A program made the position numbers and the translations under genes. Source: Terriglobus sp. (GTDB lineage: Bacteria > Acidobacteriota > Terriglobia > Terriglobales > Acidobacteriaceae). Taken from it: DNA of 64,000 bases. Below, piece after piece: positions 8,792 to 64,000 of the stretch. Position 1 is the first letter of the stretch. Every line of letters begins with the position of its first letter. Location of the stretch: the NCBI GenBank assembly GCA_965200815.1, contig OZ241387.1, positions 17,112-81,111 on the forward strand, read 5' to 3'. The notes below the pieces were generated by a model, which was not told the DNA's origin, searched no databases, and saw only the letters and a list, made by a program, of their open reading frames with translations.

Positions 8792-9025
8792 ATGCCCTCC
8801 AACAAAGCCAGCCGCAATGAACGCATCAAGCTACTCGCGACGACCCTTAACACGATCGGCTTGGCGTTCCTGGTTCCGGGTGTCGTTGTGCCACTTGTGA
8901 CGCTGCTTTATGGAGCCGATCCACCAAAGTCTCCCTTTTGGCTTGAGGTTGCGATATGGTGGGCACTTCAGGCAGTGATCTTACATATCGGTGCGCGGAC
9001 CGTTCTCGGAGGTATCGAGGAATGA
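8792..9025 (+). CDS. Small membrane protein (77 aa, two predicted TM segments)
   Basis: MPSNKASRNERIKLLATTLNTIGLAFLVPGVVVPLVTLLYG...FWLEVAIWWALQAVILHIGA. ATG 8792 lies in the frame of the 8717 ORF, directly downstream of the methylase-helicase. Confidence 0.5.
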   Translation: MPSNKASRNERIKLLATTLNTIGLAFLVPGVVVPLVTLLYGADPPKSPFWLEVAIWWALQAVILHIGARTVLGGIEE

Positions 9026-9111
9026 CCACTCTAGAGGTTTTCGCCTTCGCTGCGCCGGCGGTCATCACGTCCGTCTGCCTGTTGGCAGTGTGGTGGCAGC
9101 TTCGCCACTGA
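9022..9111 (+). CDS. 29-aa single-TM micro-ORF translationally coupled to the preceding gene
   Basis: ATGA overlap at 9022-9025, with GGAGG at 9008-9012. Translation is MTTLEVFAFAAPAVITSVCLLAVWWQLRH, followed by an 8-bp stem-loop (about 9122-9166). It is below the ORF-track length cutoff. Confidence 0.3.
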   Translation: MTTLEVFAFAAPAVITSVCLLAVWWQLRH

Positions 9112-9242
9112 ACTCAAGGTAAGACGGGCTCAGCAGGCTCTACTGGCCTGACTCAGCCCGTCTAACATCCAGGAACGCCGCGGTCGTAGAACTGGCGAAG
9201 CCGCGTTCTTCCAGCGTGCCGCCGACTAACCTTCTCTGTTCT

Positions 9243-9432
9243 GAAATTGGGAGGAAGGGCGGTAGGAGGATGGGAGAGACGGGATGCGCTCGCAGCGCGC
9301 CCGTCCCGGCACCGCTTCGCTCCATCGCCGCCGTCGCAACCCAGCCCGTCTAGGCCGCAGCCCTGGCGGGCCGCGTCCCGTGACAGGCAGGGCCGCTCGC
9401 CGGCAATGGTGCCGGGCCGGCCGCGCTGCGGG
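9243..9432 (+). repeat. Structured intergenic repeat, copy 2 (ends 24 nt before the parB-like start)
   Basis: The core 9304-9429 is near-identical to 3045-3170. The flank 9291-9313 is complementary to 9408-9430 (21 of 23), which extends the stem beyond the conserved core. The purine-rich leader starts at GAAATT (9243). Confidence 0.7.
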
Positions 9433-9455
9433 CTCGGGAAGGGTCTTCACCAGAA

Positions 9456-12156: not shown

Positions 12157-13087
12157 CCATGCTCGCCTTCCTGTTCGGCATATCGACAGCGGCTTGGTGT
12201 GGAATCCGGACATAGGTTTGTCCGAGACAAAGGGCCGATTCAATGCCAGAGCAGTTCCCGTTTTCCCATCTCGATCAGTCAATTTCAGGAAAAAGGATTT
12301 GGGAACAGATTTTGGGAAACCGGCACTGCTGCCGCTGTCCTACCCCTGCCTCGAGGTCCGTCTTCCCGCTGCACGTTCCTTTGTGGGAAAGCCGGCTCAG
12401 CCGCTATCGACCTCAACCCGGACAGTCACGGCCCCATTAGACTCAGCCGGAAGCAGACACTCGGAAGAGGTAGTGCCAGGCAGCTACGCGCCGCATCTCG
12501 AACATATATAGCTACCGGTAGAGTGCTCTGAAGCGGTCGCTGGGCAGCCCGCCTAAGCTTTACGGTTTTGTGCATCGTTGCGAACCCGAACTGCAGAACG
12601 GGACGGGTTTGTCTGCACAAGAACCGCAACTCAGCGGAACATGGTTCTCGGCAGTGAACCGCGGCGCTACTAAGGCGGCGGTCTGCCGCACATTCGGCAC
12701 CAAGCGTACTGCAAAAGTCGTCCGGATCATTCGCGTGTCCTGTCGAAGGATGGGCGCGTGCGCGTAGAGCGCCGGGCCGTACTAGCCGAAGCGTGACAGG
12801 GCTCCCCTTCGACCTGGACACCCGTCCTATGCCGGCCTGCAAGGGCGGTGCCGTCGCTTGTCACGCCCGCGGTGCCAAAGGCGCAGCCCCAGGTTTGCGA
12901 CGCGATGGGAGCCGCACAACCAGGTCGCGATGCCCCGCCCCTCGATCAGCCCAAGGTTAGCGAGGGTGCGAGCCACCCGGACCATCCAGGCCGCTGCAGC
13001 GAAGCAGAGGCTTGCCGTCCCGGAATGCCAACCGGCGGCTGACACGCGGGCAGCCGTAACCGGCCGTAACGTCACCACGCCGAGACC

Positions 13088-13504
13088 TCAGCGGAAAAGG
13101 CGCCCGAGGAAGGAGTTGTTGTGCCCGGCGTCGCCGCCGTGCTGGCTTCCGCCGTGACCTCCACCGTGACCACCTTGGTGCCCAGTGTCGTAGCCCTGCC
13201 CCCAACCGGGAGGCGGGCCGGCTGGCGGGTACCCGGGCAGCGCTGTGGGCGACGCCATCCAGGGACTTTGGGTGGGCAGGAACGGACTCTGGGCCGGTTG
13301 GTTCGGCGTCTCTTGTGGCGACGGTGCAGCAAACTGGGCATTGCGCTCGATGATCTTGTCCAACTCGCCGCGGTCGAGCCACACGCCACGGCACTTCGGG
13401 CAGTAGTCGATCTCGATGCCCTGGCGGTCGCTCATCACCAGGTCCACCCGGCACCGCGGGCATGGCATGCCGGCGGCTGCCGACGATGCTGGGTTGTCAC
13501 TCAT
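13088..13504 (-). CDS. Zinc-ribbon protein with Pro-rich linker and His/Gly-rich tail
   Basis: Start MSDNPASS at 13504, overlapping the ATPase stop by 4 nt (ATGA). Two CxxC pairs (CPRCRVDL...YCPKCRGVWLDRGELDKI) indicate a TFIIB-like zinc ribbon. The tail is GHQGGHGGGHGGSQHGGDAGHNN. Confidence 0.65.
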   Translation of the reverse strand: MSDNPASSAAAGMPCPRCRVDLVMSDRQGIEIDYCPKCRGVWLDRGELDKIIERNAQFAAPSPQETPNQPAQSPFLPTQSPWMASPTALPGYPPAGPPPGWGQGYDTGHQGGHGGGHGGSQHGGDAGHNNSFLGRLFR

Positions 13505-15954: not shown

Positions 15955-16647
15955 ATGAGCAGCCTGCCAATCTGGTTGATCGCCTTTGTTCCGGTCCTAG
16001 CGACCCTTGGCGGTGCTTGGATCGCCTTGGTGCGACCTCCGGGTCGATCCACGGTGAGTGCGGTTCAGCATCTGGCAGCGGGCGTGGTTGTGGCGGCTGC
16101 GGCTGCCGAGGTGTTGCCGGGATTGAAGCATTCCGGGGCCGAGTGGGCCGTGGCCTTCGGCGGCGGTGCGGGCATTGTCCTGATGCTGGGCATCCGCTGG
16201 TTGGACGAACAATTGAAAGGGACGACGGGGATGCTGGTGACCGTCGGGCTGGACGTTCTTGTAGACGGCCTGGTGCTGGGCGCTGCAGCGACCGCCGGAG
16301 AGCGAGCGGGCCTTCTCCTCACCATCGCGCTGACACTTGAGGTGCTCTTCCTGGGCCTGTCGCTCGCTCCGGCGCTGGCTGAACGGATGGGCACGAAAGC
16401 AAAGGTGCTGGCCGTCATAGGCTCGCTCGTGCTGCTCCTGCCACTCGGCGCCGCAACGGGTGGGTTCATCACTGGCCTACCCAGGTTCTGGCAGGACTGC
16501 TTCCTCGCCTTCGCCCTCGTGGCCCTGCTCTACTTGGTCGTCGAGGAGTTGCTCGCCGAAGCGCACGAGGTTCCGGATACCCCCATAGCAACCGCCTTGT
16601 TCTTCGTCGGATTCCTGGGCCTGCTCGTCTTGGACGGCCTGGCCTGA
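15955..16647 (+). CDS. ZIP-family-like divalent metal permease
   Basis: About 230 aa and polytopic. HLAAGVVVAAAAAEVLPG, VGLDVLVDGLVLG and VVEELLAEAHE resemble ZupT/GufA-type ZIP signature helices, though they are His-poor. ATG 15955 (alternative TTG 15937). Confidence 0.6.
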   Translation: MSSLPIWLIAFVPVLATLGGAWIALVRPPGRSTVSAVQHLAAGVVVAAAAAEVLPGLKHSGAEWAVAFGGGAGIVLMLGIRWLDEQLKGTTGMLVTVGLDVLVDGLVLGAAATAGERAGLLLTIALTLEVLFLGLSLAPALAERMGTKAKVLAVIGSLVLLLPLGAATGGFITGLPRFWQDCFLAFALVALLYLVVEELLAEAHEVPDTPIATALFFVGFLGLLVLDGLA

Positions 16648-17797: not shown

Positions 17798-18070
17798 TCA
17801 AGGCTTCGGTGGTGCGCTCTTGTCCCGATGGCCTTGCTCGTCGAGATCGCCGGGCTTATGGCCCGGGTGATCATGGTGAGGACCCGGCTTCTCGGTCACG
17901 CTCTTGTCCCGGTGGCCATGCTCGTCGAGATCACCCGGCGTATGGCCAGGGTGGTCGTGGTGCTGTCCGGGCACCTCTTTCGCGGCCTGATCGCGATGGC
18001 CGTGTTCATCGAGATCGCCTGGCTTGTGGCCGGGATGATCATGGTGAGGACCTGGCTTTTCCTGTGACAT
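17798..18070 (-). CDS. His-rich triple-repeat protein (90 aa), no signal peptide
   Basis: ATG 18070 with AAGGAAG upstream. It contains three ~29-aa repeats KPGPHHDHPGHKPGDLDEHGHRD (diverged ~87-bp tandem DNA repeats, about 17810-18067). Confidence 0.6.
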   Translation of the reverse strand: MSQEKPGPHHDHPGHKPGDLDEHGHRDQAAKEVPGQHHDHPGHTPGDLDEHGHRDKSVTEKPGPHHDHPGHKPGDLDEQGHRDKSAPPKP

Positions 18071-29715: not shown

Positions 29716-30213
29716 TTAGACCGGCGCCGTGGCACGCGTTTCATCGCGCCTTAAAGTCAGCAGCAGCAGGAGCATCACACCCAGGAAAATCGCTGAATCA
29801 GCGATATTGAAGGCAGGCCAGTGATAGCCGCCTGCGTGAAAGTCGAGGAAGTCCGTTACCGCACCATGACGCAGCCGGTCCACCACATTGCCGAGCGCGC
29901 CGCCCGTGATCAAGCCGACCGCTACCGCATTGAAGGGCCTGAAGTCATGGCGGGTCCAGAGGATAAAGCCTGCAATCACTGCAAGCGCGAACGCGGACAG
30001 TATCCATGGCGTTGCGGGATGGTCGGCCGAGAGCATGCCGAAGCTCACACCACGATTTCGACCCAGCACCACGTTGAAGAACGGGGTAACGGTCAGGACG
30101 CGCAGCGGATCGAGCAATGTCGCCAGAGCCCAAGCTTTGGTGACCTGGTCGAGCGCAAACGCGAGGATCGCGGGGGCGGCAATCCAGCCCCAGGGGATGC
30201 GGCGCTCAGCCAT
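29716..30213 (-). CDS. lspA: Lipoprotein signal peptidase II
   Basis: DQVTKAW, FFNVVLGRNRGVSFG, GGALGNVVDRLRHGAVTDFLDF and WPAFNIADS. ATG 30213 overlaps the cadA stop by 8 nt. Confidence 0.85.
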   Translation of the reverse strand: MAERRIPWGWIAAPAILAFALDQVTKAWALATLLDPLRVLTVTPFFNVVLGRNRGVSFGMLSADHPATPWILSAFALAVIAGFILWTRHDFRPFNAVAVGLITGGALGNVVDRLRHGAVTDFLDFHAGGYHWPAFNIADSAIFLGVMLLLLLTLRRDETRATAPV

Positions 30214-32395
30214 GGGCGTCTGCCTCCCGGAAGCGGTAGCGCAGCAGCCGCAGAGCATTGAGGGTCACCAGTACCGTGGCACCCGTATCGGCAAGGATGG
30301 CAGGCCACAGACCAGTGATACCGGCTACGGTTGTCACCAGGAAAACCGCCTTGAGGCCAAGCGCGATAGTGACATTCTGGTGGATGTTGGACAGCGTTGC
30401 GCGAGACAGCGCGACCAGGGCGGCCACGTCGACGACGCGGCTGTTAAGCAGTGCGGCGTCGGCCGTTTCGAGTGCCACATCGGTGCCTCCACCCATGGCA
30501 ATGCCTACGGACGCTGCGGCAAGCGCGGGCGCATCATTGATGCCGTCTCCGACCATGGCAACGGGGGCTTCTGTCTTGAGCGCACCAATTTCGCGCAGCT
30601 TGTCTTCGGGCAGCAGGCCCGCCTTCACCTTAAGGCCAAGCTGTCCCGCGATAGCCTCGCCGGTGCGGATATTGTCCCCGGTAAGCATGACCGACTGGAT
30701 GCCCAGGGCATGAAGCCGGCGAATACCCTCGGCAGCATCGGGCCGCAGCTCGTCGCGGACCGCGATCAGGCCGGTGGGCGTGCCATCCACAGAGACGACC
30801 ACCACGGTCTTGCCTTCGCCCTCCCAGGCGGCAACTGCCTGCTTGGCATCGGCGGGCAGGGATGTGAGGCTCGCTGCATAGCTAGGCGAGCCTACGCTGA
30901 CGCATTTTCCAGTAATGACCGCCTCGACCGCCTTGCCGGGGATCGCCCGTGCGTCCTTGGTTGGGCGCAGCGGAATACCGTCAGCCTCGGCGCGTTCGAG
31001 GATGGCGCGGCCGAGCGGATGGCTCGATCCGTTCTCGACCGCAGCGGCGAGGCCCAACATGGTACGCTCCTGACCTGACAAGGCCAAAAGATCGGTCACG
31101 CGTGGTCGCCCTTCGGTGAGCGTGCCGGTCTTGTCGAACGCCACGGCACGGATGCGGCCAATAGTCTCAAGTGCGCCGCCGCCCTTGATCAGCAGGCCGC
31201 GCCTGGTTCCGACTGCAAGCCCGGAAGCAATGGCAGCAGGGGTTGAAAGCACGAGCGCGCACGGGCATCCGACCAACAGCAAGGCCAAGCCGCGATAGAT
31301 CCAGGTGGCCCATTCTGCGCCAAGCAGCAGCGGCGGCACCACGGCGACCAGGGTGGCGACCAGCACCGCAATCGGCGTGTAGATGGCGGAAAAGCGTTCG
31401 ATGAAGCGCGCGGTCGGTGCCTTGGCTTCCTGGGCCTCCTCGACCAGGCGGATAATGCGGGCAATAGTATTATCGGCGGCGGGCGTGGTCACCCGCACCT
31501 GAAGCGCACCCGAGGCGTTGATGCTGCCTGCGAAGACGGCGGCACCCTCAGTCTTAGCCACGGGCACGGATTCTCCGGTCACGGGGCTTTCATCAATCTC
31601 GGAGGTTCCCTCCGTGATGGTGCCATCGGCCGAAACCCGGTCGCCTGGGCGGATCAACACCAAGTCGCCAACCACGAGGCTGGCCGCCTGCACCTCGCGC
31701 GCGGTTCCCTGCTCGATGCGTAACGCGGTCCTCGGCACGAGCGCGCCAAGTGCCTCAATGCCGGCGCGAGCGCGGCCCGCCGCGACGCTCTCAAGCAGCT
31801 CGCCCACGGTAAACAGGAACACCACGACCGCAGCCTCGGAGGTGGCGCCGATGAGGATGGCGCCCACAGTCGCGATCGACATGAGCATTTCGATGGAGAA
31901 AGGCGAGCCTGCGCGGGCGGCGGCGATAGCCTTACGCCCGAAAAACACGAGGCCGACGAGCGCGGCGGGCAGATAAGGCCAATGGTCGAGGGCAGGGACC
32001 GCAAAGGAAACCACGAACCCGACCACGATCAACATGCCTATGAGCGCAGCCAGGCGAGCCTTGGTGCCTGTCCACCACGGCTTGCGCGCGCGAACAGGTG
32101 CTGCCTCTGCGACTTCAGTGCCTGCTTCGCCCGTGACCACGCGCGGTGCCTCGACGGGGGCCACGCCGTAGCCAAGCTTACGGATGGTCTCTTCGACGGT
32201 CGCGCGGGGCGTTGCCGTTTCGTCCAGCCGGAAGGCCAGGACCTGAGCATGGTAGTTGACGCGGATGTCCTCGGCACCGCTGACGCGACCGACTGCCGTT
32301 TCGATCTTCGTAGCGCAGGAGGGGCAGTCCATGCCTTCGACATGGTAGCGCAAGTTGGCCTGCGGCCGGGTCGGGGCGGTGTCGGTATCTGTCAT
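30206..32395 (-). CDS. cadA: Heavy-metal translocating P1B-type ATPase (Cd/Zn/Pb type)
   Basis: HMA domain GMDCPSCATKIE; CPC (LVGCPCALVLSTP); DKTGTLT; GDGINDAPAL. Confidence 0.9.
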   Translation of the reverse strand: MTDTDTAPTRPQANLRYHVEGMDCPSCATKIETAVGRVSGAEDIRVNYHAQVLAFRLDETATPRATVEETIRKLGYGVAPVEAPRVVTGEAGTEVAEAAPVRARKPWWTGTKARLAALIGMLIVVGFVVSFAVPALDHWPYLPAALVGLVFFGRKAIAAARAGSPFSIEMLMSIATVGAILIGATSEAAVVVFLFTVGELLESVAAGRARAGIEALGALVPRTALRIEQGTAREVQAASLVVGDLVLIRPGDRVSADGTITEGTSEIDESPVTGESVPVAKTEGAAVFAGSINASGALQVRVTTPAADNTIARIIRLVEEAQEAKAPTARFIERFSAIYTPIAVLVATLVAVVPPLLLGAEWATWIYRGLALLLVGCPCALVLSTPAAIASGLAVGTRRGLLIKGGGALETIGRIRAVAFDKTGTLTEGRPRVTDLLALSGQERTMLGLAAAVENGSSHPLGRAILERAEADGIPLRPTKDARAIPGKAVEAVITGKCVSVGSPSYAASLTSLPADAKQAVAAWEGEGKTVVVVSVDGTPTGLIAVRDELRPDAAEGIRRLHALGIQSVMLTGDNIRTGEAIAGQLGLKVKAGLLPEDKLREIGALKTEAPVAMVGDGINDAPALAAASVGIAMGGGTDVALETADAALLNSRVVDVAALVALSRATLSNIHQNVTIALGLKAVFLVTTVAGITGLWPAILADTGATVLVTLNALRLLRYRFREADAHG

Positions 32396-53831: not shown

Positions 53832-55292
53832 CTTAGCTCGACTTTGGCCAATTCTGACGATTTTGGGCGGCAGAGCGGGTCTGGCGGTAGTTTGTCGCGT
53901 TCCCGCCAAGAGACGTCGTCATGCCCCCTCTGTCATCCCGTTTCGCCGGGGTCATCCTAAGCTTCGCACCGCTGTTCCTTCAACGCAGTTGGCGTCACGC
54001 CGAGGTGTTGCTGACCGGCGCCATCCTGGTGCCGGGCCAGCGCACGGTGACCAGCATCTTGCGCATCATGGGCCTCAGACAGGAGCGGCGGTTCGTGAAC
54101 TACCACCGCGTGCTGAACCGGGCGGCCTGGTGCCCGCGGGCGGCATCGCGCACCCTGCTTGGTCTTCTCGTCGCAGCGTTCGCGCCAAGAGGCCCCCTCG
54201 TGCTGGGGATCGACGACACGATAGAGCGCAGGCGCGGTAAGCGGATCGCGGCCAAAGGCATCTACCGTGACCCCGTGCGATCCAGTCATGGGCACTTCGT
54301 CAAGGCAAGTGGCCTTCGCTGGCTCAGCCTCATGCTGCTGGTCCCGGTTCCGTGGGCCAAGCGCGTGTGGGCTTTGCCGTTCCTGACAGCGTTGGCTCCC
54401 TCGGAACGATATTGCCAGGAGCGCGGACAGCGCCACAAAAAGCTGACGGACTGGGGACGCCAGCTCGTGTTGCAGGCCCGCCGCTGGCTGCCCGGCCGTG
54501 AGTTGGTCGTGATCGGCGACAGCGCCTTCGCCGCTCTGGAGTTCCTGGCCGTCACCGGCCGCCACGGGGTGACCTGTGTCACACGCTTGCGGCTGGACGC
54601 GGCCCTCTACGATCCGGCATCGCCGCGTCGGCCTGGCACCAACGGACGGCCCCGCACCAAGGGCAGGCGACTGGCGACGCTGTCCGAGATCCTGACCGAC
54701 CCGGCGACGCCCTGGCAGCGCGTCACCGTGCCGGGCTGGTATGGTGACGGCGAGCGCGAGATCGAGGTCAGCACCGACACCGCGGTCTGGCGGCACAGCG
54801 GGATGCCCATCGTGCCGATCCGATGGGTGCTCGTCCGGGACCCCGTAGGCCGGTTCGAATCTCAAGCTCTGCTCTGCACCGACCTGGCCCAGGATCCCGC
54901 CCAAGTCCTGCGCTGGTTCGTCCAGCGCTGGCAGGTCGAGGTCACGTTCAGGGAAGTCCGCGACCACCTGGGTGTGGAAACGCAACGCCAGTGGGCGGAC
55001 ACGGCCATCGCGCGCACGACACCCTGCCTGCTTTGCCTGTTCTCGGTCGTGACCCTGCTTGGAAAGCAGCTCACGCCGTATACCCGCCGAGCTACAGCTA
55101 CCAGCGCCTGGTAACGCAAGATACGCCCGACCTTTGCCGACACCCTCGCCGCCGTGCGCCGAGATATTTGGAAGGAAAGGGGTTTCGGCACATCCAGTCG
55201 AACCGCCCGCATGATAAAACTCAGGCCAGCAATCCGCAACGCCATCACCTACGCGCTTTGCCACGCAGCCTGATGGCCAAAGTCGAGCTTAG
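53832..55292 (+). mobile_element. Insertion sequence (~1.46 kb) with 19-bp terminal inverted repeats; IS4/IS701-like DDE transposase
   Basis: IRL is cttagctcgactttggcca (53832-53850). IRR is tggccaaagtcgagcttag (55274-55292), 18 of 19 complementary. A single transposase frame fills the interior. I could not identify target-site duplications. Confidence 0.75.
53921..55273 (+). pseudogene. DDE transposase interrupted by an in-frame TAA at 55112-55114
   Basis: The 397-aa ORF ends ...TRRATATSAW*. The same frame continues RKIRPTFADTLAAVRRDIWKERGFGTSSRTARMIKLRPAIRNAITYALCHAA to TGA 55271-55273, which abuts IRR. DDE-type motifs are present (LGIDDTIERRRGKRI, VIGDSAFA, QRWQVEVTFREVR). Confidence 0.7.
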
Positions 55293-55398
55293 TCGGTGAC
55301 CGTGCGAGCCGTGAAACGGTGACGAGAGGAGGCGAGGTAGTGAAGACGGGAAGGATGGTTGAGAGGGTTGAGAGGGGAGAGACTTGGGGCTGACACTG

Positions 55399-55647
55399 CT
55401 CGTGCCGGCCTGTCCCCTCGGGTTGCTGCGGTCTGAGCCACGGGGCCGGGCGCTCCTACCCCCGCTTTCCCTGCGGGAAAGCGCCTTCGGTTCGGCATTC
55501 TCGCTCAGGCATCCGGGCCGTGCCGTGCGCAGGGCCAAGGCCCCGCTTCGTCGCAACCCGAACGCCCTCCCTCACATGCCTCAGAGATAGGAGCGCCCGG
55601 CCCCGCGTCTCTCTTCGACCGCACCCGAGGGAACAAACCGGCACGAG
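55399..55647 (+). repeat. About 250-nt compound imperfect hairpin preceded by a purine-rich tract, 40 nt upstream of ssb
   Basis: The outer stem is ctcgtgccgg(55399-55408)/ccggcacgag(55638-55647). An inner perfect 17-bp stem is cggggccgggcgctcct(55441-55457)/aggagcgcccggccccg(55589-55605). A sub-hairpin cgctttccc-tgc-gggaaagcg also forms. The purine-rich leader at 55321-55390 resembles those of repeat copies 1 and 2. Confidence 0.6.
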
Positions 55648-55686
55648 CCGGAAGCCCTGGGGAAGAGAGATGAAGAGGGTCAGACC

Positions 55687-56157
55687 ATGGCGAAGTTCGT
55701 CAACAAGGTGCAGTTGCTGGGTAACCTGGGTGCGGACCCGGAGGTGCGGAACTTCCAGAACGGCGGGCGGGTGCTGACCTTCAGCCTCGCGACCAGCGAC
55801 ACCTGGAAAGACCGCCACAGCGGCGAGCGGAAAGAGCGGACCACCTGGCACCGCGTTTCGATTTTTGCCGATGGCCTGATCGACGTGGCCGAGAAGTATC
55901 TGAAAAAGGGCAGCAAGGTCCTGGTTGAGGGCAAGCTGGAGAACCGCGAGTGGACGGACGGTGAGGGCGTGAAGCGCACCTCCACCGAGGTGGCGCTGCG
56001 CCCGTTCAGCAGCGACCTGGTGCTGCTGGGCGACGCCCCGGCGAGCCGGAGTGAGAGCGCACCGCGCCGGGAGCGCCAGACGATGGGAGCCGGTGCCGGC
56101 GGACGTGGCTACAACCTGCCGAAAGACAACGATCTGGACGAATCCATCCCGTTCTGA
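55687..56157 (+). CDS. ssb: Single-stranded DNA-binding protein
   Basis: OB-fold N-terminus MAKFVNKVQLLGNLGADPEVR...TTWHRV, a Gly-rich linker, and an acidic tip DNDLDESIPF. Confidence 0.9.
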   Translation: MAKFVNKVQLLGNLGADPEVRNFQNGGRVLTFSLATSDTWKDRHSGERKERTTWHRVSIFADGLIDVAEKYLKKGSKVLVEGKLENREWTDGEGVKRTSTEVALRPFSSDLVLLGDAPASRSESAPRRERQTMGAGAGGRGYNLPKDNDLDESIPF

Positions 56158-56701: not shown

Positions 56702-57031
56702 ATGGCCGCCATCACCATCAATCTGCCGCTCTACCAGGTCCTGACCGAGTTGAAGGTCGGGGAGGACCGCGCCCGACAAGCGGCCGAGGCCTCGATCCCG
56801 GACCTCTCGGCCTTCGCAACCCGCGACGACCTCAAGATTGCCCTGGACGGCCTGGAGCAGCGGCTCGGCCGCACCATCGCCGAGAAGACGGACGGGCAGA
56901 CCAAGTGGATCGCGGCCATCGCCGCGAGCACGATCATCGTTCTGCTCAGTGGCTCGGCCTGGTTGTGGCCGCCGACCCGCTTCGCCGGGCCGCCCAGCCC
57001 GCCCGCGGCCGTCACTCTTCCCCAACACTGA
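56702..57031 (+). CDS. Hypothetical coiled-coil protein with C-terminal TM anchor (109 aa)
   Basis: MAAITINLPLYQVLTELKVGEDRARQAAEA...WIAAIAASTIIVLLSGSAWLW. Confidence 0.55.
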   Translation: MAAITINLPLYQVLTELKVGEDRARQAAEASIPDLSAFATRDDLKIALDGLEQRLGRTIAEKTDGQTKWIAAIAASTIIVLLSGSAWLWPPTRFAGPPSPPAAVTLPQH

Positions 57032-57089
57032 CCTGATCGCCCCGGACACTTCGCGCCGGCGTCTCTCGATCCTGCCCTGCTGACGGGCG

Positions 57090-57105
57090 CCCGGCGAAAG
57101 CCGGG
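57090..57105 (+). terminator. GNRA-loop hairpin cccggc-gaaa-gccggg followed by attgtt
   Basis: Read directly; it lies 59 nt after the stop at 57031. Confidence 0.4.
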
Positions 57106-57217
57106 ATTGTTCAGCACCCCTTATCAGGAGTTTTCCCATGACCCGCACGCGCTTCGGCACGGGCACACGCGCTGCTGCGCGCGTGCGCCGCCTCTCCCCC
57201 TCTCCGGGAGAGCCGTC

Positions 57218-58478: not shown

Positions 58479-58769
58479 GTGGCTGACCTACTCGATCGTT
58501 CGACGGAACTGGATATGAGCGGGGTTGGCGACGTCGCGGCCGCGATCAGCACCTTGGCTTGGACGCACGGCGTCACCGCCGCAGCCGAGCCGGTGGACGC
58601 CTTCGCCGACGCCACGGCTCGGCTGTGCGACACGGAGGTCACGTTCGACCATACCGAGCGACTGCTCCTTGGGCTGGCGCGCGGCGGGTTCGTCACCGAC
58701 GAGCAGCGCTTCGCGCTGCACGCAGCCTACTTGCAGCAGCTGGCCGGTGACGTTCGACCCGTTCGGTGA
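58479..58769 (+). CDS. Hypothetical protein overlapping the Fic gene start; candidate cognate antitoxin or partner
   Basis: AGGAGA lies 6 nt before GTG 58479 (ORF open from 58401). The protein is 96 aa and its 3' end overlaps the fic GTG by 23 nt. It contains TAAAEP, a near-match to the (S/T)xxxE(G/N) Fic-inhibitory helix motif. Confidence 0.45.
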   Translation: MADLLDRSTELDMSGVGDVAAAISTLAWTHGVTAAAEPVDAFADATARLCDTEVTFDHTERLLLGLARGGFVTDEQRFALHAAYLQQLAGDVRPVR

Positions 58770-59403
58770 CCGGGACACGCGTGGCTACCTGCGCAATCGC
58801 CTCGGAACCAATGACGCCGCCCTGATCTCCCGGCTGGAGGCGCACGCCTTCTCCGCCAACGTGCTTCCGGCCCTCACCGCCCTGAAAGCAGCGCCGACAG
58901 TCAGCTACGACCAGGTGCTCGACACGCACCGCCGGCTGTTCAGCTCCGTCTACCCCTGGGCTGGGCAGGATCGAGCCACGCTCGCGCCTGACATCGCCAT
59001 CGCCAAGGGCGGCGTGGCCGACCTGTTTTCACACCCGGCCGATGTGCGCCGCGCCACCGATTATGCGCTCGGCATGGGCCTGGATGCCCGCACTCTGCGG
59101 GCCAAGCCGGGGGAGGTGTTCGGCGCTTTGGCGTACGCACACCCCTTCTTGGAAAACAACGGCCGCACGCTCATGACGGTGCATGCCGACCTCACGCGAC
59201 GTGCCGGGTTTCACGTCGACTGGACCGGGATCGCAAAGCCGGAGTTCCTCGCCGCACTCACGGCCGAACTGCGCCAGCCGGGCTCCGCCCTCGATGCGCT
59301 GCTGCTGCCGCACGTCCGGCCAGGCCCATTGCCAATCGAGCGCGCCGCGGTGAGCTTGGCGCAGAACCCGGGGCTCAACCGTTCCGGACCCTCGCCGTCC
59401 TGA
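58747..59403 (+). CDS. Fic/DOC-family protein with a non-canonical active-site motif
   Basis: VTFDPFGDRDTRGYLRN..., THRRLFSSVYPWAGQDR, and the Fic motif region HPFLENNGRTLM (canonical HPFx[D/E]GNGRxxR). I chose GTG 58747; the ORF is open from 58525. Confidence 0.8.
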   Translation: MTFDPFGDRDTRGYLRNRLGTNDAALISRLEAHAFSANVLPALTALKAAPTVSYDQVLDTHRRLFSSVYPWAGQDRATLAPDIAIAKGGVADLFSHPADVRRATDYALGMGLDARTLRAKPGEVFGALAYAHPFLENNGRTLMTVHADLTRRAGFHVDWTGIAKPEFLAALTAELRQPGSALDALLLPHVRPGPLPIERAAVSLAQNPGLNRSGPSPS

Positions 59404-59593
59404 GTAGATCAGCCCTGACCTGATCCGTTAGATCGCCAGCGTCAGCTGCTGGTTGCCAAGTCCGGGGCTGGGTGAGGAGAGTCCAACACGGGGGAAGATT
59501 ACCAGCCCTGGCCGGCGCTGCGCATGGGCTTCCTTTCCGGTCGCCCGACGATCCGGCGTGGCGCCCTGGCCCAGGGCGTCCTACCCTGACGCC

Positions 59594-60295
59594 ATGTGTG
59601 GTCGCTTTGCCCTGTCCCAGACGCCTGCCGCCCTTGCCAAGGTGTTCGGCACCCACAACGCTGTTCCCAACTTCCAGCCCAACTGGAACTTGCCACCCAG
59701 CCAGCCAGCGCCTGTGGTGCGGCACAATCCCAAGACGGGCGAGCGGAGCCTGGACGTGCTGCGCTGGGGCCTGATCCCGCACTTCGAGAAGGACCCTGCC
59801 CACGCCCGCATGCTCAACAACGCCCGGGCCGAGACGGTAGCCAAGCTGCCGAGCTTCCGCGGTGCCTTCGCGTCCCGGCGCTGCATCGTCCCGGCCGATG
59901 CCTTCTACGAGTGGAAGCGGGACGGCAAGCTGAAGCAGCCTTTCGCCATCGCCCGGGTGGATGGGGCACCGCTCGCCTTCGGCGGCATTTGGGAAAGCTG
60001 GACAGACCCGGCGAGCGGCGACATCACCCGGAGCTTCGCGATCGTCACCACGGAGGCAAACGGGACCATGGCGCCGATCCATGATCGCATGCCCGTCATT
60101 CTGGAAGCTTCTGACTGGCCGGTGTGGTTAGGCGAGGAAGAAGGCGATCCGAAGTCGCTGCTGCGTCCGGTTGCCGACAGCGTGCTTCGGACGTGGCCGG
60201 TAAGCACGGACGTGAACAGCGTGCGGCATAAAGGGGCCGAGTTGTTGCAGCCGATGCGCGACGAGGCGGTAGAGGGTGGCCCGAACTCGGCATGA
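59594..60295 (+). CDS. SOS-response-associated peptidase (SRAP, YedK/HMCES family)
   Basis: N-terminal MCGRF (catalytic Cys2). Also WGLIPHF, NARAETV, RRCIVPADAFYEW, PIHDRMPVIL. Confidence 0.9.
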   Translation: MCGRFALSQTPAALAKVFGTHNAVPNFQPNWNLPPSQPAPVVRHNPKTGERSLDVLRWGLIPHFEKDPAHARMLNNARAETVAKLPSFRGAFASRRCIVPADAFYEWKRDGKLKQPFAIARVDGAPLAFGGIWESWTDPASGDITRSFAIVTTEANGTMAPIHDRMPVILEASDWPVWLGEEEGDPKSLLRPVADSVLRTWPVSTDVNSVRHKGAELLQPMRDEAVEGGPNSA

Positions 60296-60328: not shown

Positions 60329-63304
60329 TTACCTCTCCAGCCGAACACGGAGACGTCTTGCTCTCTCGCGGAACGCGGGTTCCCCCCCTTCAAGCACCTT
60401 GCAGACGAGCGTACGAATATTGGCTCGCTCTAATCCGCCGGAAAGGTAGGAGATGGGCGGTAGCGCGTCGCTCGCGTGCGGGCCGACGTTCGCCACGATG
60501 ATCTGATCGGCGTCGGTGTTGATGACCAGATTAGCGTTGTGCGTAATCATGATCACCTGTCGACGGGACTTGGCTTCGGTGAAAAGACCCACGAGCTCGT
60601 CGAAGATAGATTGCGGGTCCAAGTTCTCTTCGGGCTGGTCTATGATCAACGGGCGGTCATCGGCTTTGTCGAGGGCCAGATAAAGCAGAAGCAGGACGAT
60701 CCCGCGCGTGCCGGGCGACAGCTTGCTGATGTCCGTCCCGTCATACCGGACACTGTAGTTGATCGTGATATGGTCCGTGCTGTAGAGCCATTTGGCAAAT
60801 TGCTTGAGCCAAAGGCGGTATTGGGTAGGGTCCGTCTTTGCAACACGGGCTTGTTCGAGCAAATCGCTCTGGTGCGCGTCTCGAAAAGATTTCATGGCAG
60901 CTGTAACCTCAGCGCCATCACCCGCTTCCCAGGCCTTCTTTAAGTCCTGGTCTGCAATCTTCTGCAGCGATCCAGATCCTTTGAATTGGCCTTGACGCCG
61001 GAGATCAATTAACTCGTCTTCCCCTCGCTTTGCCCACCGCGCAACATCGGCGGTTCGTGTGACGGTGAAGGAGAGTTTGTTCAGGGCTCCGCTTGCGTTG
61101 TTTAACCTCTCTTGAATCGGAGCGTAGAGCAGCTCCAGGACGCTTTGTTCGTTCAGCACATAGTCAAATACCAGCTTGTAGGATGCTTCACGCCGGGCAT
61201 GAAGTTCAGCCGCGCGTGCTTTGGCCCCCTGGGCGTCCGTAAGCTTCTGCCGCAGTCCGGTTAACAGCTCGTTCTCTTGCACCAAGCGTGTCGAAAGGGC
61301 CGCATATCGGTCAGTAGTAGCTTTGTCGACGCTGATCAGCCCGTTCAAGCGCGTAATCTCAGCCTCCAGCTTCGCAAGTGGCTGGCGCGTCAAGTCATCA
61401 CCTTGGCTGATATAGGACATCTTGTTGTCGGCAAGCTCAGCTGGCGGCGTTCCCTTCCAATCTTTCACCAGCTTCGTGGCCTGTCGTAGGTTCTGAGCGA
61501 GAAGGCTGTCCACATCCCCTACGTAGTCCGTAAGGAAGCTCTTCCATGTATCTATCTCGAGGCCACTTGCCGCGTGCAGGCGTTGTACCTCCCGCAAAAT
61601 GGCTGGGGCTTTGTTGTTGCGGCGATCGACTACTTCATCCTGCATCGTTAGCAGGTCGTCGACCCTAAGATTGCTGTGCCGCAAGTGACCGCGGACGGTC
61701 TCCGCGGCGGCAGTAAGGGCTTGCAGCTGTCCCACCCGCTCCTGGCTGCCTTTCGCCACCAAACGGGCTCGCTCTGCTTCTGTCCTCCGTATCAGCGCTT
61801 CCTTATCTCTGATCTGAGACTGGTAAGTCGCTGCCAGCTTGTCCTTTTCTAGCTCGGTGCCGATCTGGTCTGAGAGATCGGTTAGGGCTTCCTCTTCGCG
61901 CTGCCGCGCCTGGCGATATCTCCTCGATCGCAGCTCCAACAGGTCGTGGAAATCTACCGCGCCATCGCGGTCTGAGGCCGAATGAGACTCAAAGATTACG
62001 CGCTCAATCTCTCGGAGCAGCGCGTCTGTCATACCGTAGGACGAGCAGAGGTTCTCGACGAATTGCTGGGAGAGGTAACGTGCCCTTGGGTAGCTCTCGG
62101 AGTCGAGTTGCTCGGTGAGATGCCGCCTTTCCTCGTCCCCGGACGCCCACTTTAATGTCACCCAGTTCTGGTTCAGAAACTCACGGGCACGCCAGAGGAA
62201 GGACTGTTGGTTCTCGGGCGACGGACCCGCGTCGCAAGCGCGTGCGATAATATCGGCCAGTGCTGTCTTCCCCGATCCCCGCGCACCAATGATGGCAACT
62301 AAACCTGGGTTTAAATTGATATGCGGGGTCATCGCCCATGGGGCATTATGCAGGGTGATGGAGGCAATGACGTCTGATGGGCACGTTCCAAGCGGCGGCG
62401 CGTCACCCACATGAGCACGGCTTTCAGGGTCGATGTATGCCTGACGCAGGGCATCGAAACTTGGGTCGCCTTTGATCCAGGTGTAGCGGTTCTCGGCCGG
62501 CTTGCCGACCATGCCGAGCGTGTGGGCATCACACCCATGAATACAAGGCTTGACCCCGTTGTAGTCTGCCTTCAGCTCGTCAACTAGGACGCTCCGCCTC
62601 CCGAGCCAGAACTCCCTCTGTGCTACCGAGGAAGCTAGAATTACATGCGCGAAGCTTTCAACGCTTTTGCGATTTGTAGCCTCCGCCGCGTCACGCATGC
62701 CGCCGGTGCCATCGTCGCCGCCAGCAACAGCGATTAGGATGTTCTTCTGTGCCCACTCATGCCCTTGGTACACCGTGCGCAGCTGGTCGAAAGTCACCTT
62801 GAACTGTCGTGCGCCAAGTTCAAGCGCAGCCGGTGTATTGGGTGCCGCACCTGATGACTCTCCGAGCCGCATCAGCTCGTCACGCGTGCATCTGAAGATG
62901 TCACCAGGAGTCTGGTATGTGAGGTTCGCTAAAAATCGCCGGGCTTCGGTAATATGTTTCGGATCTTCTGGGCTAATTAAAAGGTGCAAGTTAGTCCAAT
63001 TACCTTTAACAGTCCCAAAGTTAAGCCTTGTTTCTATGTTGGCAAAAACTAGTTTGCAATTACTAAGGCGACCTGCCGCCTTTGCCTCAAGGACCTTCTC
63101 ATAGCACTCGAGGCAGTAGTAATCAGTGATACCTAGAACTTCGATCACCGGTGTCGCGGCCTCAAGCGCCTTCAGATATTCATCCCAGACATCGGGGCCA
63201 CGAAACTGGTTCGCCATGATCGTGCCGGGTGCATGAATGTGAGGGTCCCATCGCCGCCAACGTGATCCCGAGTCCTCCGGCAAGGCATCCATAACCATGT
63301 GCAA
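60329..63304 (-). CDS. PHP-domain phosphoesterase fused to a Rad50/SbcC-like ABC ATPase with long coiled coil (991 aa)
   Basis: N-terminal PHP motifs WDPHIHAPGT (DxHxH) and HGCDAH. Walker A is AIIGARGSGKTALADII. About 450 aa of E/R/L/Q/A-rich heptad-like sequence follows. The C-terminus carries a signature-like LSPGTRG, Walker B LIIDQPEENLD and H-loop ITHNANL. Spot GC counts are about 52-60%, against about 65-68% in the flanks. Confidence 0.8.
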   Translation of the reverse strand: MHMVMDALPEDSGSRWRRWDPHIHAPGTIMANQFRGPDVWDEYLKALEAATPVIEVLGITDYYCLECYEKVLEAKAAGRLSNCKLVFANIETRLNFGTVKGNWTNLHLLISPEDPKHITEARRFLANLTYQTPGDIFRCTRDELMRLGESSGAAPNTPAALELGARQFKVTFDQLRTVYQGHEWAQKNILIAVAGGDDGTGGMRDAAEATNRKSVESFAHVILASSVAQREFWLGRRSVLVDELKADYNGVKPCIHGCDAHTLGMVGKPAENRYTWIKGDPSFDALRQAYIDPESRAHVGDAPPLGTCPSDVIASITLHNAPWAMTPHINLNPGLVAIIGARGSGKTALADIIARACDAGPSPENQQSFLWRAREFLNQNWVTLKWASGDEERRHLTEQLDSESYPRARYLSQQFVENLCSSYGMTDALLREIERVIFESHSASDRDGAVDFHDLLELRSRRYRQARQREEEALTDLSDQIGTELEKDKLAATYQSQIRDKEALIRRTEAERARLVAKGSQERVGQLQALTAAAETVRGHLRHSNLRVDDLLTMQDEVVDRRNNKAPAILREVQRLHAASGLEIDTWKSFLTDYVGDVDSLLAQNLRQATKLVKDWKGTPPAELADNKMSYISQGDDLTRQPLAKLEAEITRLNGLISVDKATTDRYAALSTRLVQENELLTGLRQKLTDAQGAKARAAELHARREASYKLVFDYVLNEQSVLELLYAPIQERLNNASGALNKLSFTVTRTADVARWAKRGEDELIDLRRQGQFKGSGSLQKIADQDLKKAWEAGDGAEVTAAMKSFRDAHQSDLLEQARVAKTDPTQYRLWLKQFAKWLYSTDHITINYSVRYDGTDISKLSPGTRGIVLLLLYLALDKADDRPLIIDQPEENLDPQSIFDELVGLFTEAKSRRQVIMITHNANLVINTDADQIIVANVGPHASDALPPISYLSGGLERANIRTLVCKVLEGGEPAFRERARRLRVRLER

Positions 63305-63421: not shown

Positions 63422-64000
63422 TCAAAAGTCACGGCTTTCCGGCATCCTAGCCTTCGGCCGCGCTGATCCGGGTTCTGCGTGCCGGACTTCATCACCGCGC
63501 AGCAGAGCTACATCGTCCCAACGCGCTCCACCGTCGGATCGCATCAGCCCGTTCAGCAGGTCTGAGCGGTCGACCAGCTTGCGGCAGATCAGATGTGTGA
63601 TGGGCACCTCTGCGTGCTCGATCTCTCGTTCCACCCGGCCTTCGGCAATCAGCAGCCGGGCGCCAATCATCGCCGCCCGGTCCCGCGCACCTACATCGGC
63701 GTAGACAACGAGGTTTGCCGTGCCAAACTCGTCCTCCATGGTGATAAACACGATGCCCTTGGCCGTGCCCGGCCGCTGCCGCATCAGCACCAAACCCGGT
63801 AGCTTGATCCAGGTCCCTGGCCGCGCTGTGCCAAGCCGGCGCGTGTCATGCAGGCCGAGGCGCTGCAGCTGCTCGCGCAGCAGCGCCAGCGGATGTTGGC
63901 GCAGGCTGAGCCCGGTTGCCATGTAGTCCAGCACGGTCGATTGCCCATCCGCTTCCGCCGGCAGGGCCGGGGCGAGCTCTTGGATAAAGGACGGCTCGCC
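63422..64000 (-). CDS. dnaE2: Error-prone DNA polymerase DnaE2 (ImuC), C-terminal fragment (5' part outside window)
   Basis: The frame is open to the window edge. VLDYMATGLSLRQHPLALLREQL...LVLMRQRPGTAKGIVFITMEDEFGTANLVVY is the OB-fold/C-terminal region typical of DnaE2. Confidence 0.8.
   Translation of the reverse strand, partial: GEPSFIQELAPALPAEADGQSTVLDYMATGLSLRQHPLALLREQLQRLGLHDTRRLGTARPGTWIKLPGLVLMRQRPGTAKGIVFITMEDEFGTANLVVYADVGARDRAAMIGARLLIAEGRVEREIEHAEVPITHLICRKLVDRSDLLNGLMRSDGGARWDDVALLRGDEVRHAEPGSARPKARMPESRDF

Follow-up and report, generated by a model that had tools for sequence, protein, structure and literature searches.

A conserved minus-strand hairpin ahead of a plasmid ssb gene: a candidate signal on transferred single-stranded DNA

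The question raised by this locus is whether the hairpin of about 250 bases that stands directly ahead of ssb is a signal that works while the DNA is single-stranded. Promoters active on single-stranded DNA (ssDNA) explain how the anti-defence and SOS-damping genes of conjugative plasmids are switched on within minutes of entry. To our knowledge, the ssDNA promoter classes characterised so far (ssp1-3) were all described in IncF and IncI plasmids, whose hosts are Enterobacteria. Frpo1/Frpo2 (ssp1) of F and ssi1-3 of ColIb-P9/pESBL are promoters of this kind (Masai & Arai 1997; PMC9849209; PMC12672017). In pESBL, a scan of the kind used here (< -75 kcal/mol, 300-nt windows) brought out six large hairpins, and every early operon is preceded by one of them (PMC12672017). 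The hairpin considered here lies in what is called the window, the whole 64,000-nt stretch of DNA that was analysed.

Architecture of the hairpin and its flanks

The compound hairpin, referred to below as family B, spans 55398-55648 and is predicted on the minus strand, the template for ssb, from folding, repeats and a consensus of 13 homologues. Its outer stem (P1 and P2) joins 55398-55423 to 55623-55648, an inverted repeat with 26-nt arms that are 88% complementary. An earlier note on this DNA had described a pairing of ctcgtgccgg (55399-55408) with ccggcacgag (55638-55647), which falls inside these arms, and one of CCCCTCGGG..GCGGTC with GACCGC..CCCGAGGG, which recurs at the same positions. 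Between P2 and helix P3 (55428-55433 paired with 55617-55622), five nucleotides at 55423-55427, TTGCT on the plus strand and AGCAA on the minus strand, bulge out opposite a single base (55623). The inner stem P4 (55435-55458 with 55588-55611) is an inverted repeat of 24 nt and 92% complementarity, and the perfect 17-bp stretch noticed earlier (55441-55457 with 55589-55605) is part of it. The 9-bp sub-hairpin CGCTTTCCC/GGGAAAGCG (55463-55483) was also borne out, with 55463-55471 pairing with 55475-55483. A further interior helix, at approximately 55500-55574 (coordinates converted from alignment columns), forms on the minus strand only; it corresponds to helices 5 and 6 of the consensus, has conserved G·T wobbles and includes the 11-mer GGGTTGCGACG at 55549-55559.

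Folded as DNA, the minus strand reaches -95.0 kcal/mol (271 nt; z -8.3) and the plus strand -82.2 kcal/mol (z -6.3), and for each strand none of 200 shuffles was as good. The minus-strand structure, intergenic and upstream of an operon, is thus beyond the limit that marks large stable hairpins of the ssDNA promoter class, which is < -75 kcal/mol in a 300-nt DNA fold (PMC12672017). When the 22 kb of the window outside the cargo was scanned by folding, the three biggest minus-strand outliers were exactly this hairpin and the two copies of a 158-nt repeat described below.

The ssb gene (55687-56157, plus strand) encodes a plasmid single-stranded-DNA-binding protein of 156 amino acids (Pfam SSB, E 4.9e-33). 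The foot of the hairpin at 55647/55648 lies about 39 nt ahead of its ATG (55687), in agreement with the earlier description, and the spacer (55649-55686, plus strand) is purine-rich and holds the ssb ribosome-binding site. On the other side, an insertion sequence (IS) with a DDE_5 transposase (53832-55292; transposase 53921-55114) forms the right edge of a metal-resistance cargo. Its inverted repeats (53832-53850 and 55274-55292) are 19 nt long and 95% complementary, and the right one ends at 55292, where the IS had been proposed to end. From there to the hairpin foot runs a purine-rich (G/A) leader (55293-55397, plus strand), which reads as a pyrimidine tract on the minus strand. Its reported G/A richness is real: purines make up 78% of the 80 nt that lead up to the hairpin, and 80-nt windows in the background average 0.50 +/- 0.06, with a 99th percentile of 0.66. 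The hairpin and its leader of about 105 nt are intact with the IS and the metal cargo immediately upstream, so the cargo insertion spared the element, as the earlier note had argued. An exact look-up of the window's SSB returned only a 1.2-kb contig, and gave neither an uninserted ancestor of the cargo site nor an oriT for the element.

The leader is conserved in composition and not in sequence. The upstream tract has a purine fraction of 0.70-0.78 in all Roseomonas, Lichenicola and L003 homologues and of only about 0.5 in five metagenome members. In the 40 nt 3' of the hairpin, the fraction is 0.70-0.80 in the window, Roseomonas, Lichenicola and L003, and 0.57-0.68 in six metagenome members.

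Conservation, covariation and strand preference

The 250-base hairpin is real and conserved, is maintained by compensating mutations, and is tied to the start of ssb. It is present in 18 Roseomonas plasmids, Lichenicola, Agrobacterium pTiBo542, a Nitrobacter plasmid and metagenome contigs. A metagenome scan with a 16-mer gave about 120 loci, of which six are true members by motif (L096, L167, L169, L176, L197, L207). Two later HMM matches, L149 and L099, are candidate further members. A search of genome contigs with the SSB protein brought up mainly chromosomal ssb genes from distant taxa, L003 alone being useful, and a comparable hairpin is absent at the more distant plasmid ssb genes of Komagataeibacter and Haematobacter.

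The folding and covariation check proposed in the earlier note came out in favour of the structure: the minus strand folds beyond its shuffles, compensatory changes are present, and relatives keep the hairpin ahead of ssb. The minus-strand consensus of 13 homologues has 95 pairs. Of their cells, 98.2% hold a valid pair, and 16 of the 95 show compensatory changes. This level was reached by 0 of 500 shuffles, and controls with slid pairings were 40-45% paired. In a set of 21 sequences that includes distant members, compensatory changes occur in 22 of 34 pairs. The parts of the structure vary to different degrees. P1 covaries strongly across distant members, and the inner stem P4 has compensatory changes in consensus helix 3 (six pairs). 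P2 (CCTCGGG/CCCGAGG) is nearly invariant, and with P3 it supplies the two fixed helices on either side of the asymmetric bulge. The block GGYTCAGRCCGCAGCA varies little or not at all across the 21 sequences, which come from several genera and from metagenomes, with flanking stems that covary. The 9-bp sub-hairpin is kept in the 13 long-form homologues and missing from a short form (L088, L089, L003). The recognition core is likely to consist of P2, the AGCAA bulge (opposite T), P3 and GGYTCAG on the 3' arm of the minus-strand hairpin, the variable stems needing only to pair.

The structure belongs to the minus strand, the template for ssb. Read on the minus strand, its pairs include 98 G·T and 22 mismatched cells; the same pairs on the plus strand include 5 G·T and 115 mismatched cells. 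The interior-helix columns (55500-55574) read UG in 12-13 of 13 sequences, or mixtures of UG, CG and UA, and the same cells on the plus strand are A·C or C·A mismatches. The direction of the effect is the same when the structure is derived from the plus strand, since the broken cells are then mostly C·A (18), which are G·T on the minus strand. A skeleton of Watson-Crick pairs only, read on the plus strand, has 27 C·A against 9 G·T among its 1x1 mismatches. Consensus energies are -177.9 for the minus strand and -128.9 for the plus strand, and the minus strand gives the better fold in 20 of 22 homologues; the metagenome members L176 and L207 have no minus-strand advantage. Energy asymmetry by itself discriminates poorly between the strands, as values of similar size occur in a few unrelated windows and can arise elsewhere from base composition alone; the strand argument therefore rests on the conserved wobble columns and the mismatch types. 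A structured RNA made from the minus strand would fit the strand preference equally well.

Small open reading frames cross the hairpin. A coding role for them was rejected because the variation is compensatory, with indels of 5 nt and 55 nt.

Placement, transfer polarity and a second hairpin family

The gene set around the hairpin (PAPS reductase, methylase-helicase, ParB_N, ssb) is typical of leading regions. The element stands ahead of ssb in Roseomonas, Lichenicola, L003 and L167, and ahead of an unrelated gene of 195 amino acids in a different arrangement, with the order helicase, ParB, DUF7007, hairpin, X, ArdC (examined in L197); the Nitrobacter plasmid and pTiBo542 also carry it. At the nine loci measured, the distance from hairpin to start codon is 19-49 nt. 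The element behaves as a portable module set at a fixed position before start codons.

The window itself contains neither an oriT nor a relaxase, and polarity was drawn from synteny with relatives. In two Roseomonas plasmids that share the window's gene order, a MobF relaxase gene follows ssb on the same strand, at a distance of 8.5 kb in NZ_CP025059.1 and 16.8 kb in NZ_CP015585.1, and in pTiBo542 oriT and traA lie downstream, again on the same strand. The Nitrobacter plasmid says nothing about polarity, since a search of the 35 kb downstream yielded no relaxase. The layout of the F plasmid is identical, with hairpin-linked genes directed toward oriT and the relaxase. The relaxase is normally the last to enter (PMC11541004). 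Since the hairpin-linked genes point toward oriT or the relaxase in three related plasmids, as in F, the minus strand is likely, by this comparison, to be the transferred strand. It is through synteny only that the genes downstream of the hairpin appear to be templated by the transferred strand, as genes of a leading region are.

Two further hairpins of the window form family A, the 158-nt repeat. Copy 1 (3029-3186, minus strand) lies upstream of the methylase-helicase operon, and copy 2 (9288-9445, minus strand), 92% identical to it, stops about 11 nt short of the ATG (9456) of the ParB_N gene. As DNA, copy 1 folds to -56.6 kcal/mol on the minus strand and -43.0 kcal/mol on the plus strand, and copy 2 to -70.8 and -53.3 kcal/mol, respectively, copy 2 being the strongest minus-strand outlier of the scan (z -4.5). 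Covariation in family A extends to 45 pairs, 17 of them compensatory.

The hairpin ahead of ssb had been taken for a third, larger member of this family, with an internal stretch that echoes copies 1 and 2. The echo exists and is short, consisting of the 11-mer GGGTTGCGACG with CCGCTTCG nearby. The 11-mer occurs exactly, on the minus strand, in all three window hairpins (at 3073, 9332 and 55549). It was rejected as a defining motif and is treated as a local similarity because it is unconserved across family A. Common membership did not hold up. In blastn, the ssb hairpin shared only 11-12-nt matches with copies 1 and 2 (best 11 nt, 100%, E 0.06); the family A HMM missed 55398-55648, and the family B HMMs missed both copies. 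Sequence comparison thus indicates that families A and B are separate and separately conserved, and that they co-occur in the same regions. Both have a purine-rich leader and a hairpin specific to the minus strand, with a bulge rich in purines on its 3' arm; both end a few tens of nucleotides before a start codon, and the plasmids that carry them are the same, ranging from Acetobacteraceae to Agrobacterium and Nitrobacter. By contrast, they are unalignable beyond 11-12 nt, and the invariant bulge of family A is GAGCG-N1-2-AGCG.

Possible roles on the transferred strand

Conventional start signals are missing from the hairpin region. The consensus scan found no sigma-70 promoter upstream of ssb, and no pair of -35 (TTGACA) and -10 (TATAAT) boxes matching at 9 of 12 positions occurs on either strand of 55200-55760, 2900-3300 or 9150-9520. 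Because the DNA upstream is unrelated in the window and in locus L087, ssb needs its own start signal. By eye, sigma-54 (GG-N10-GC) and sigma-32-like motifs do not fit the spacings of the invariant block. Distant members have a TTGNNN hexamer 17-18 nt before this block, where the window and Roseomonas have TAGGAG. The hexamer was dropped as a -35-like promoter box and is not claimed as such because it is missing from the window and the Roseomonas form. An intrinsic terminator, a G+C-rich stem followed by a T-run, was discarded because no T-run follows the stem on the plus strand; the sole terminator-like match is a 5-bp stem within the right arm, on the minus strand. Rfam 15 gave no match at gathering score in the whole window, and relaxing the limit to E 10 around the two kinds of hairpin added nothing but noise.

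The hairpin has much in common with Frpo and ssi elements, which are large (about 160-330 nt) imperfect hairpins on the template, transferred strand of a leading region (by synteny in the window) and stand directly upstream of ssb and other establishment genes pointing toward oriT. Frpo2 of F, also upstream of ssb, folds better on the T-strand (-92.4) than on the other strand (-83.2), as the window hairpin does on the minus strand (-95.0 against -82.2). Both kinds of leading region hold several elements, including near-identical pairs separated by a few kilobases: identity is 92% both between Frpo1 and Frpo2, which lie 5 kb from each other, and between window copies 1 and 2, which lie 6.3 kb from each other. 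Homology is absent, however. The three window hairpins searched against 15 kb of the F leading region, including Frpo1 and Frpo2 (blastn, word size 7), gave a best E of 0.15 over 10-28 nt, whereas the Frpo/ssi family of Samuel et al. 2024 is delimited by BLAST E < 1e-6. The window hairpin also differs in being about 70% G+C, with neither an A+T-rich UP element nor recognisable -35/-10 boxes, and its invariant part is a bulge-containing module instead of two hexamers. Its hosts are Alphaproteobacteria, unlike those of Frpo/ssi, and enterobacterial ssDNA promoters were reported to be silent in Alphaproteobacteria (Sinorhizobium) (PMC12672017).

The coexistence of families A and B has a parallel in ssp2 and ssp3 of pESBL and F, where non-homologous hairpin classes share one leading region, each before its own operon (PMC12672017; bioRxiv 10.64898/2026.01.09.698686). 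The G+C-rich ssp2 (68.6%) doubles as a structural roadblock to complementary-strand synthesis that is resolved by UvrD (bioRxiv 10.64898/2026.01.09.698686). The very stable window hairpin could likewise be a roadblock; in the ssp classes, unlike in this hairpin, start sites have been mapped and -35/-10 boxes are present. The single-strand origins of rolling-circle plasmids (ssoA, ssoU and others) are likewise large imperfect hairpins specific to strand and orientation, and host RNA polymerase synthesises a short RNA primer on them. Their conserved blocks sit in unpaired or bulged positions, and these origins are untied to gene starts and serve vegetative replication.

On balance, and with moderate confidence, the hairpin is best explained as a structured signal that acts on the single DNA strand which a conjugative plasmid transfers. 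By analogy with Frpo/ssp, it would be a promoter, a priming site or a replication roadblock on single-stranded DNA, most likely promoter-like. The earlier proposal of an ssDNA promoter fits the conserved structure at ssb, the leading-region gene set, the polarity and the fold on the template strand, but not the lack of a -35/-10 pair. As the minus strand enters the recipient, 55398-55648 would snap into a long imperfect hairpin, and the flanking pyrimidine tracts, unable to pair, may insulate it from competing structures. The hairpin would then offer duplex DNA on which host RNA polymerase could start, with transcription leaving through the hairpin base into ssb before the complementary strand is made. 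The same RNA could double as a primer, and the very stable stem could stall complementary-strand synthesis, prolonging the single-stranded state of ssb. Once the DNA becomes double-stranded, the hairpin, and hence the signal, would be gone.

A bolder and rather doubtful extension would unite families A and B in an alphaproteobacterial entry-signal system on the transferred strand, reaching from Acetobacteraceae megaplasmids to the Agrobacterium Ti plasmid. RNA starts on single-stranded DNA would be read from structure, through a bulge-and-helix module (P2-AGCAA-P3 in family B, the GAGCG-N-AGCAG type in family A) and not through -35/-10 boxes, and the pyrimidine tracts would be SSB-loading sites or folding insulators. 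Both families are in any case candidate equivalents of the known elements in Alphaproteobacteria, with covariation behind them and a defined invariant core, and they occur in genetically tractable plasmids, e.g., pTiBo542. Should they prove active, early transcription of single strands would be general and not an enterobacterial speciality, and a second solution to recognition, independent of A+T-rich hexamers, would exist. Leading regions and transfer polarity could then be annotated in G+C-rich plasmids that are now typed 'non-mobilizable'.

Several other explanations have to be weighed against a promoter-like signal. The hairpin may serve the single strand with no role in gene expression, as an ssi/sso-like priming site (for host primase, PriA or a plasmid primase) or as a roadblock, being intergenic only because a 250-nt structure cannot fit in a gene. 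This is unlikely, although the structure is specific to the minus strand, a -35/-10 pair is missing and the Nitrobacter leading region contains a toprim-domain gene; Frpo also makes primers, and ssp2 is a roadblock resolved by UvrD (bioRxiv 10.64898/2026.01.09.698686). A pure priming site would have no need for the placement observed, with its tight conserved distance of 19-49 nt to the starts of two unrelated genes and one hairpin per operon start in the window. Somewhat less likely still is a structure in the plus-strand message (5'-UTR or intercistronic), which would affect message stability, provide an RNase III cut, shield ssb from transcription arriving from upstream or act as an antiterminator like conAn of pLS20. 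The plus strand also folds beyond chance (z -6.3), co-oriented upstream genes in most relatives would give read-through RNA that includes the hairpin, and Gram-positive plasmid establishment genes use leader RNAs, at least as outlined in PMC6294495. The pairs themselves speak for the other strand: 115 cells are mismatched on the plus strand and 22 on the minus strand, wobble columns turn into A·C or C·A, the interior helix (55500-55574) exists on the minus strand only, and the stem has neither a T-run after it nor an Rfam match.

Recognition by a plasmid-encoded protein for structured DNA (a ParB-like nuclease, ArdC, or the relaxase at a secondary site) in place of RNA polymerase is improbable. 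An invariant module with extrahelical bases, as P2-bulge-P3 is, typifies sites read by proteins, attC among them, and the hairpin is always found alongside the genes for ParB_N, ArdC and the helicase. Its neighbours, however, include no integrase or HUH-type gene, and the occurrence of the hairpin with MOBF and MOBQ/MOBP relaxases alike argues against recognition by one specific relaxase. Control of ssb by a structured antisense RNA transcribed from the minus strand has very little probability. It is equally compatible with the strand-specific covariation, but the minus strand has no promoter-like site and no T-run after the stem, two unrelated hairpin families share the arrangement, and the hairpin precedes two unrelated genes, so that its sequence is antisense to the start of neither in particular. 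It is just as hard to credit a selfish palindromic repeat of the MITE or REP kind with no plasmid role, even for a large imperfect palindrome in a window that holds three such elements. Neither target-site duplications nor scattered copies were seen, and different orders retain the element, with compensatory changes in its pairs and a core that does not vary, in only one or two places per plasmid and always at the same syntenic positions.

Architecture and conservation of the ssb hairpin

The compound hairpin upstream of ssb occupies positions 55398-55648, its stem ending 39 nt before the ssb ATG, and repeat analysis and DNA folding show that it folds better on the - strand. The outer arms (55398-55423 with 55623-55648) are accompanied by a middle pairing of GCGGTC with GACCGC, an inner stem (55435-55458 with 55588-55611) that includes a perfect 17-bp run, a 9-bp sub-hairpin (55463-55483) and an interior helix (about 55500-55574) that forms on the - strand only. 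All of the nested pairings described in an earlier note are present at the coordinates that it gave. Folded as DNA, the region reaches -82.2 kcal/mol (z -6.3) on the + strand and -95.0 kcal/mol (z -8.3) on the - strand, and none of 200 dinucleotide shuffles matches its energy on either strand. The purine-rich leader is likewise real, with 78% purine in the 80 nt 5' of the hairpin against a background of 0.50 +/- 0.06. The insertion sequence (IS) that closes the metal-resistance cargo, delimited by 19-nt inverted repeats at 53832-53850 and 55274-55292, does lie directly upstream and has left the hairpin undamaged, its right end stopping 105 nt before the foot.

In a distant BLAST search, 18 Roseomonas plasmids match the ssb region at about 75% identity, and in most of them the alignment starts at the foot of the hairpin, not within the gene. 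The family assembled around it (family B) comprises these homologues, a Lichenicola plasmid, an Acetobacteraceae MAG and six metagenome contigs; pTiBo542 and a Nitrobacter plasmid, also matched in an HMM search, joined later. It exists in two forms, a long one, as in the window, and a short one without about 55 nt including the sub-hairpin. The covariation analysis proposed in the note supports the fold: the - strand consensus of the 13 long-form sequences comprises 95 pairs, with 98.2% of pair cells paired and compensatory changes (both sides changed, pair kept) in 16 of the 95. No shuffle out of 500 reaches these pairing and covariation values, and sliding the partners by 1-3 columns lowers pairing to 40-45%. 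In the rougher alignment of the arms of 21 distinct sequences, compensatory changes affect 22 of 34 pairs, and a 3-bp helix swaps GAG/CTC for GAA/TTC. The outer and inner stems vary freely; the invariant block, GGYTCAGRCCGCAGCA on the - strand with GGGTGCGGYC opposite, comprises helices P2 and P3 and, opposite a single T, the 5-nt bulge AGCAA.

The folding strand

The consensus energy of family B is -177.9 on the - strand, the template strand for ssb, against -128.9 on the + strand. Read on the - strand, the 95 pairs give 1110 Watson-Crick, 98 G·T and 22 mismatched cells; mirrored to the + strand, they give 5 G·T and 115 mismatched cells. As the structure used in this comparison came from the - strand, two checks free of that bias were added. 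When the + strand supplies the structure, most broken cells are C·A/A·C (18), equivalent to G·T on the - strand, and 10 of the 15 G·U cells on the + strand fall within one doubtful 3-bp helix. In folds restricted to Watson-Crick pairs, the 1x1 mismatches read on the + strand include 27 C·A/A·C against 9 G·T, and 39 pyrimidine-pyrimidine against 11 purine-purine, meaning that the mismatches of the - strand belong to the mild types (G·T, G·G, G·A). A number of wobble columns either keep UG (12-13 of 13 sequences) or alternate between UG, CG and UA, as expected of a helix maintained on the - strand.

Two metagenome members of the family show no - strand advantage, and energy asymmetry by itself is also found outside hairpins. 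Window segments 56951-57160 and 55001-55240 fold better on the - strand by 12-14 kcal/mol although they form no discrete hairpin, probably owing to base composition, and the energy difference alone is therefore an unsafe test of the folding strand. The strand evidence fits - strand DNA and - strand RNA alike.

Two hairpin families and their placement before genes

The earlier note regarded the ssb hairpin as a third member of the regulatory family formed by the 158-nt repeat (family A), whose copies 1 and 2 (3029-3186 and 9288-9445) are 92% identical. A single-strand regulatory hairpin in the leading region is likely, but a third copy of the repeat it is not: no homology to family A is detected, the best blastn match being only 11-12 nt, and on their sequences the two are to be regarded as separate, non-homologous families. 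An exact 11-mer is common to the two family A copies and the ssb hairpin, but family A as a whole does not conserve it. What the two families share is a design in which a leader is followed by a hairpin of the - strand that has a purine bulge, and then by a short purine spacer leading to the start codon. Family A also folds much better on the - strand (copy 1, -56.6 against -43.0; copy 2, -70.8 against -53.3), and has 28 G·T cells on that strand and 4 on the + strand. It occurs in 59 plasmids of Roseomonas, Rhodovastum, Agrobacterium, Rhizobium, Shinella, Nitrobacter and others, at the loci examined mostly between the methylase-helicase gene and ParB_N and otherwise 5' of the former. Compensatory changes affect 17 of its 45 pairs, 94.4% of cells are paired against 30-47% in slid controls, and the 3' arm bears an invariant bulge of its own, GAGCG-N1-2-AGCG. 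Scanning the 22 kb of the window outside the cargo ranks the three hairpins first among - strand-specific outliers.

In Acetobacteraceae, ssb lies directly 3' of family B. In the order helicase, ParB_N, DUF7007, hairpin, X, ArdC (shown for metagenome contig L197), family B instead precedes an unrelated gene for a 195-aa protein, X. Between stem end and start codon lie 19-49 nt at the nine loci measured. Upstream of the leader, the window and plasmid pTT14-4 carry unrelated or opposite-strand DNA, which makes ssb independent of any upstream operon there; the 400 nt before the window ssb contain no sigma-70-like site.

Protein X is conserved (…IHLQRIVGAYVGSAHGAGQFYS…), has no Pfam match and is encoded at 7660-8247 of L197 and also in four further metagenome contigs (L096, L169, L176, L207). 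In alphaproteobacterial leading regions its gene sits immediately 3' of the family B hairpins and is a candidate for a role in establishment or anti-defence. The loci from pTiBo542 (hairpins at about 12926-13125 and 8996-9160) and Nitrobacter plasmid 2 (13239-13477 and 8996-9168) carry both families at identical syntenic positions, A before ParB_N and B before the gene of about 195 aa, which there precedes ProQ/FinO, an HTH gene and ArdC. These two plasmids offer a genetically tractable model for both families.

Transfer polarity and putative function

On its + strand, the window outside the cargo encodes a PAPS-reductase-domain protein, a 1725-aa methylase and SNF2 helicase, a ParB_N protein, ssb, Fic and SRAP. 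This order recurs on R. gilardii plasmid 1 (ArdC-like, PAPS reductase, methylase-helicase, ParB_N, cytosine methyltransferase, ssb), where a small gene and a MobF relaxase lie 16.8 kb downstream of ssb on the same strand; in R. mucosa HV3 plasmid 2 the relaxase lies 8.5 kb downstream, before an IcmT/DotD-type type IV secretion system. On the traA strand of pTiBo542, the genes linked to the hairpins (ParB region, gene X, ArdC) precede traC, oriT and traA by 16-22 kb; the Nitrobacter plasmid is uninformative. The F plasmid shows the same layout, with methylase, antirestriction gene, ssb and psiB all directed at oriT and traM. Since the relaxase side is normally the last to enter the recipient (PMC11541004), this synteny points to the - strand, which templates these genes and forms the hairpins, as the transferred strand; the window itself contains no oriT. 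Most hairpin-bearing Roseomonas plasmids are typed as non-mobilizable (PLSDB typing, MOB-suite). The two checked, NZ_CP025059.1 and NZ_CP015585.1, both encode a MobF relaxase, the former also a coupling protein and an IcmT/DotD-type type IV secretion system, and the typing looks like a false negative.

The reading with the best support, at slightly better than even confidence, is a single-strand promoter or priming signal of the Frpo/ssp kind, the single-stranded-DNA promoters of F and IncF/IncI plasmids. Upon entry into the recipient the - strand would fold, and host RNA polymerase would start a + sense transcript on the duplex stem that exits via the hairpin base into ssb. The same RNA might also prime the complementary strand, and the stem might delay synthesis of that strand, like ssp2 in F. 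In Frpo2 of F, the 3' arm of the T-strand hairpin bears, next to the apical loop, an A+T-rich tract taken as the UP element, suggesting a promoter that reads from loop to base, its -35/-10 boxes not being placed with confidence. The invariant bulge block of the ssb hairpin lies on the same arm as this tract, a geometry that, by analogy, fits the promoter model. A start near the unpaired base 55623 would give the transcript about 65 nt of unstructured, purine-rich leader. The flanking purine tracts, a clade feature that is not universal, are pyrimidine tracts on the folding strand; as they pair neither with themselves nor with the stem, they may serve as folding insulators or preferred SSB sites. 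The main weakness of the promoter reading is that the hairpin contains no recognisable -35/-10 pair; a TTGNNN hexamer at fixed spacing occurs in some family B members only.

Three classes of ssDNA promoter have been described, all from IncF and IncI plasmids (PMC12672017), and broader predictions rested on similarity to known classes (PMC11541004). The literature searched yielded no mention of Alphaproteobacteria with such promoters, and the hairpins have no Rfam family. The ssb hairpin resembles Frpo/ssp in position, strand and architecture but fails both sequence-level tests, homology and rebuilt hexamers, and is therefore filed as a putative variant of these signals.

Other large hairpins occupy intergenic positions 5' of + strand genes in the related leading regions (L001, 11230-11480 and 6150-6380; Nitrobacter plasmid 2, 14201-14400; pTiBo542, 16251-16450; L197, 8251-8450). 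Some are strongly - strand-biased (L001 11230-11480, -80.2 against -64.3 kcal/mol), and they may represent further classes of such signals. Adjoining the SRAP (59453-60295) and Fic-domain (58525-59403) genes, the - strand at 60329-63304 encodes a 991-aa protein with AAA_21, SMC_N and AAA_23 and an N-terminal HIHAPGT motif (PHP-like), possibly a defence-type ATPase-nuclease. A - strand ORF at 63422-63934, which may extend past the window end, resembles by eye a C-terminal segment of a DnaE2-like error-prone DNA polymerase. The metal-resistance cargo holds three tandem 84-nt repeats (17802-18053, 76-79% identical), probably a repeated coding unit on one strand. Stretches 13501-15000 and 30200-31420 are paralogous (71-76% identical over about 700 nt, offset 16.64 kb), which suggests duplicated cargo-region genes.
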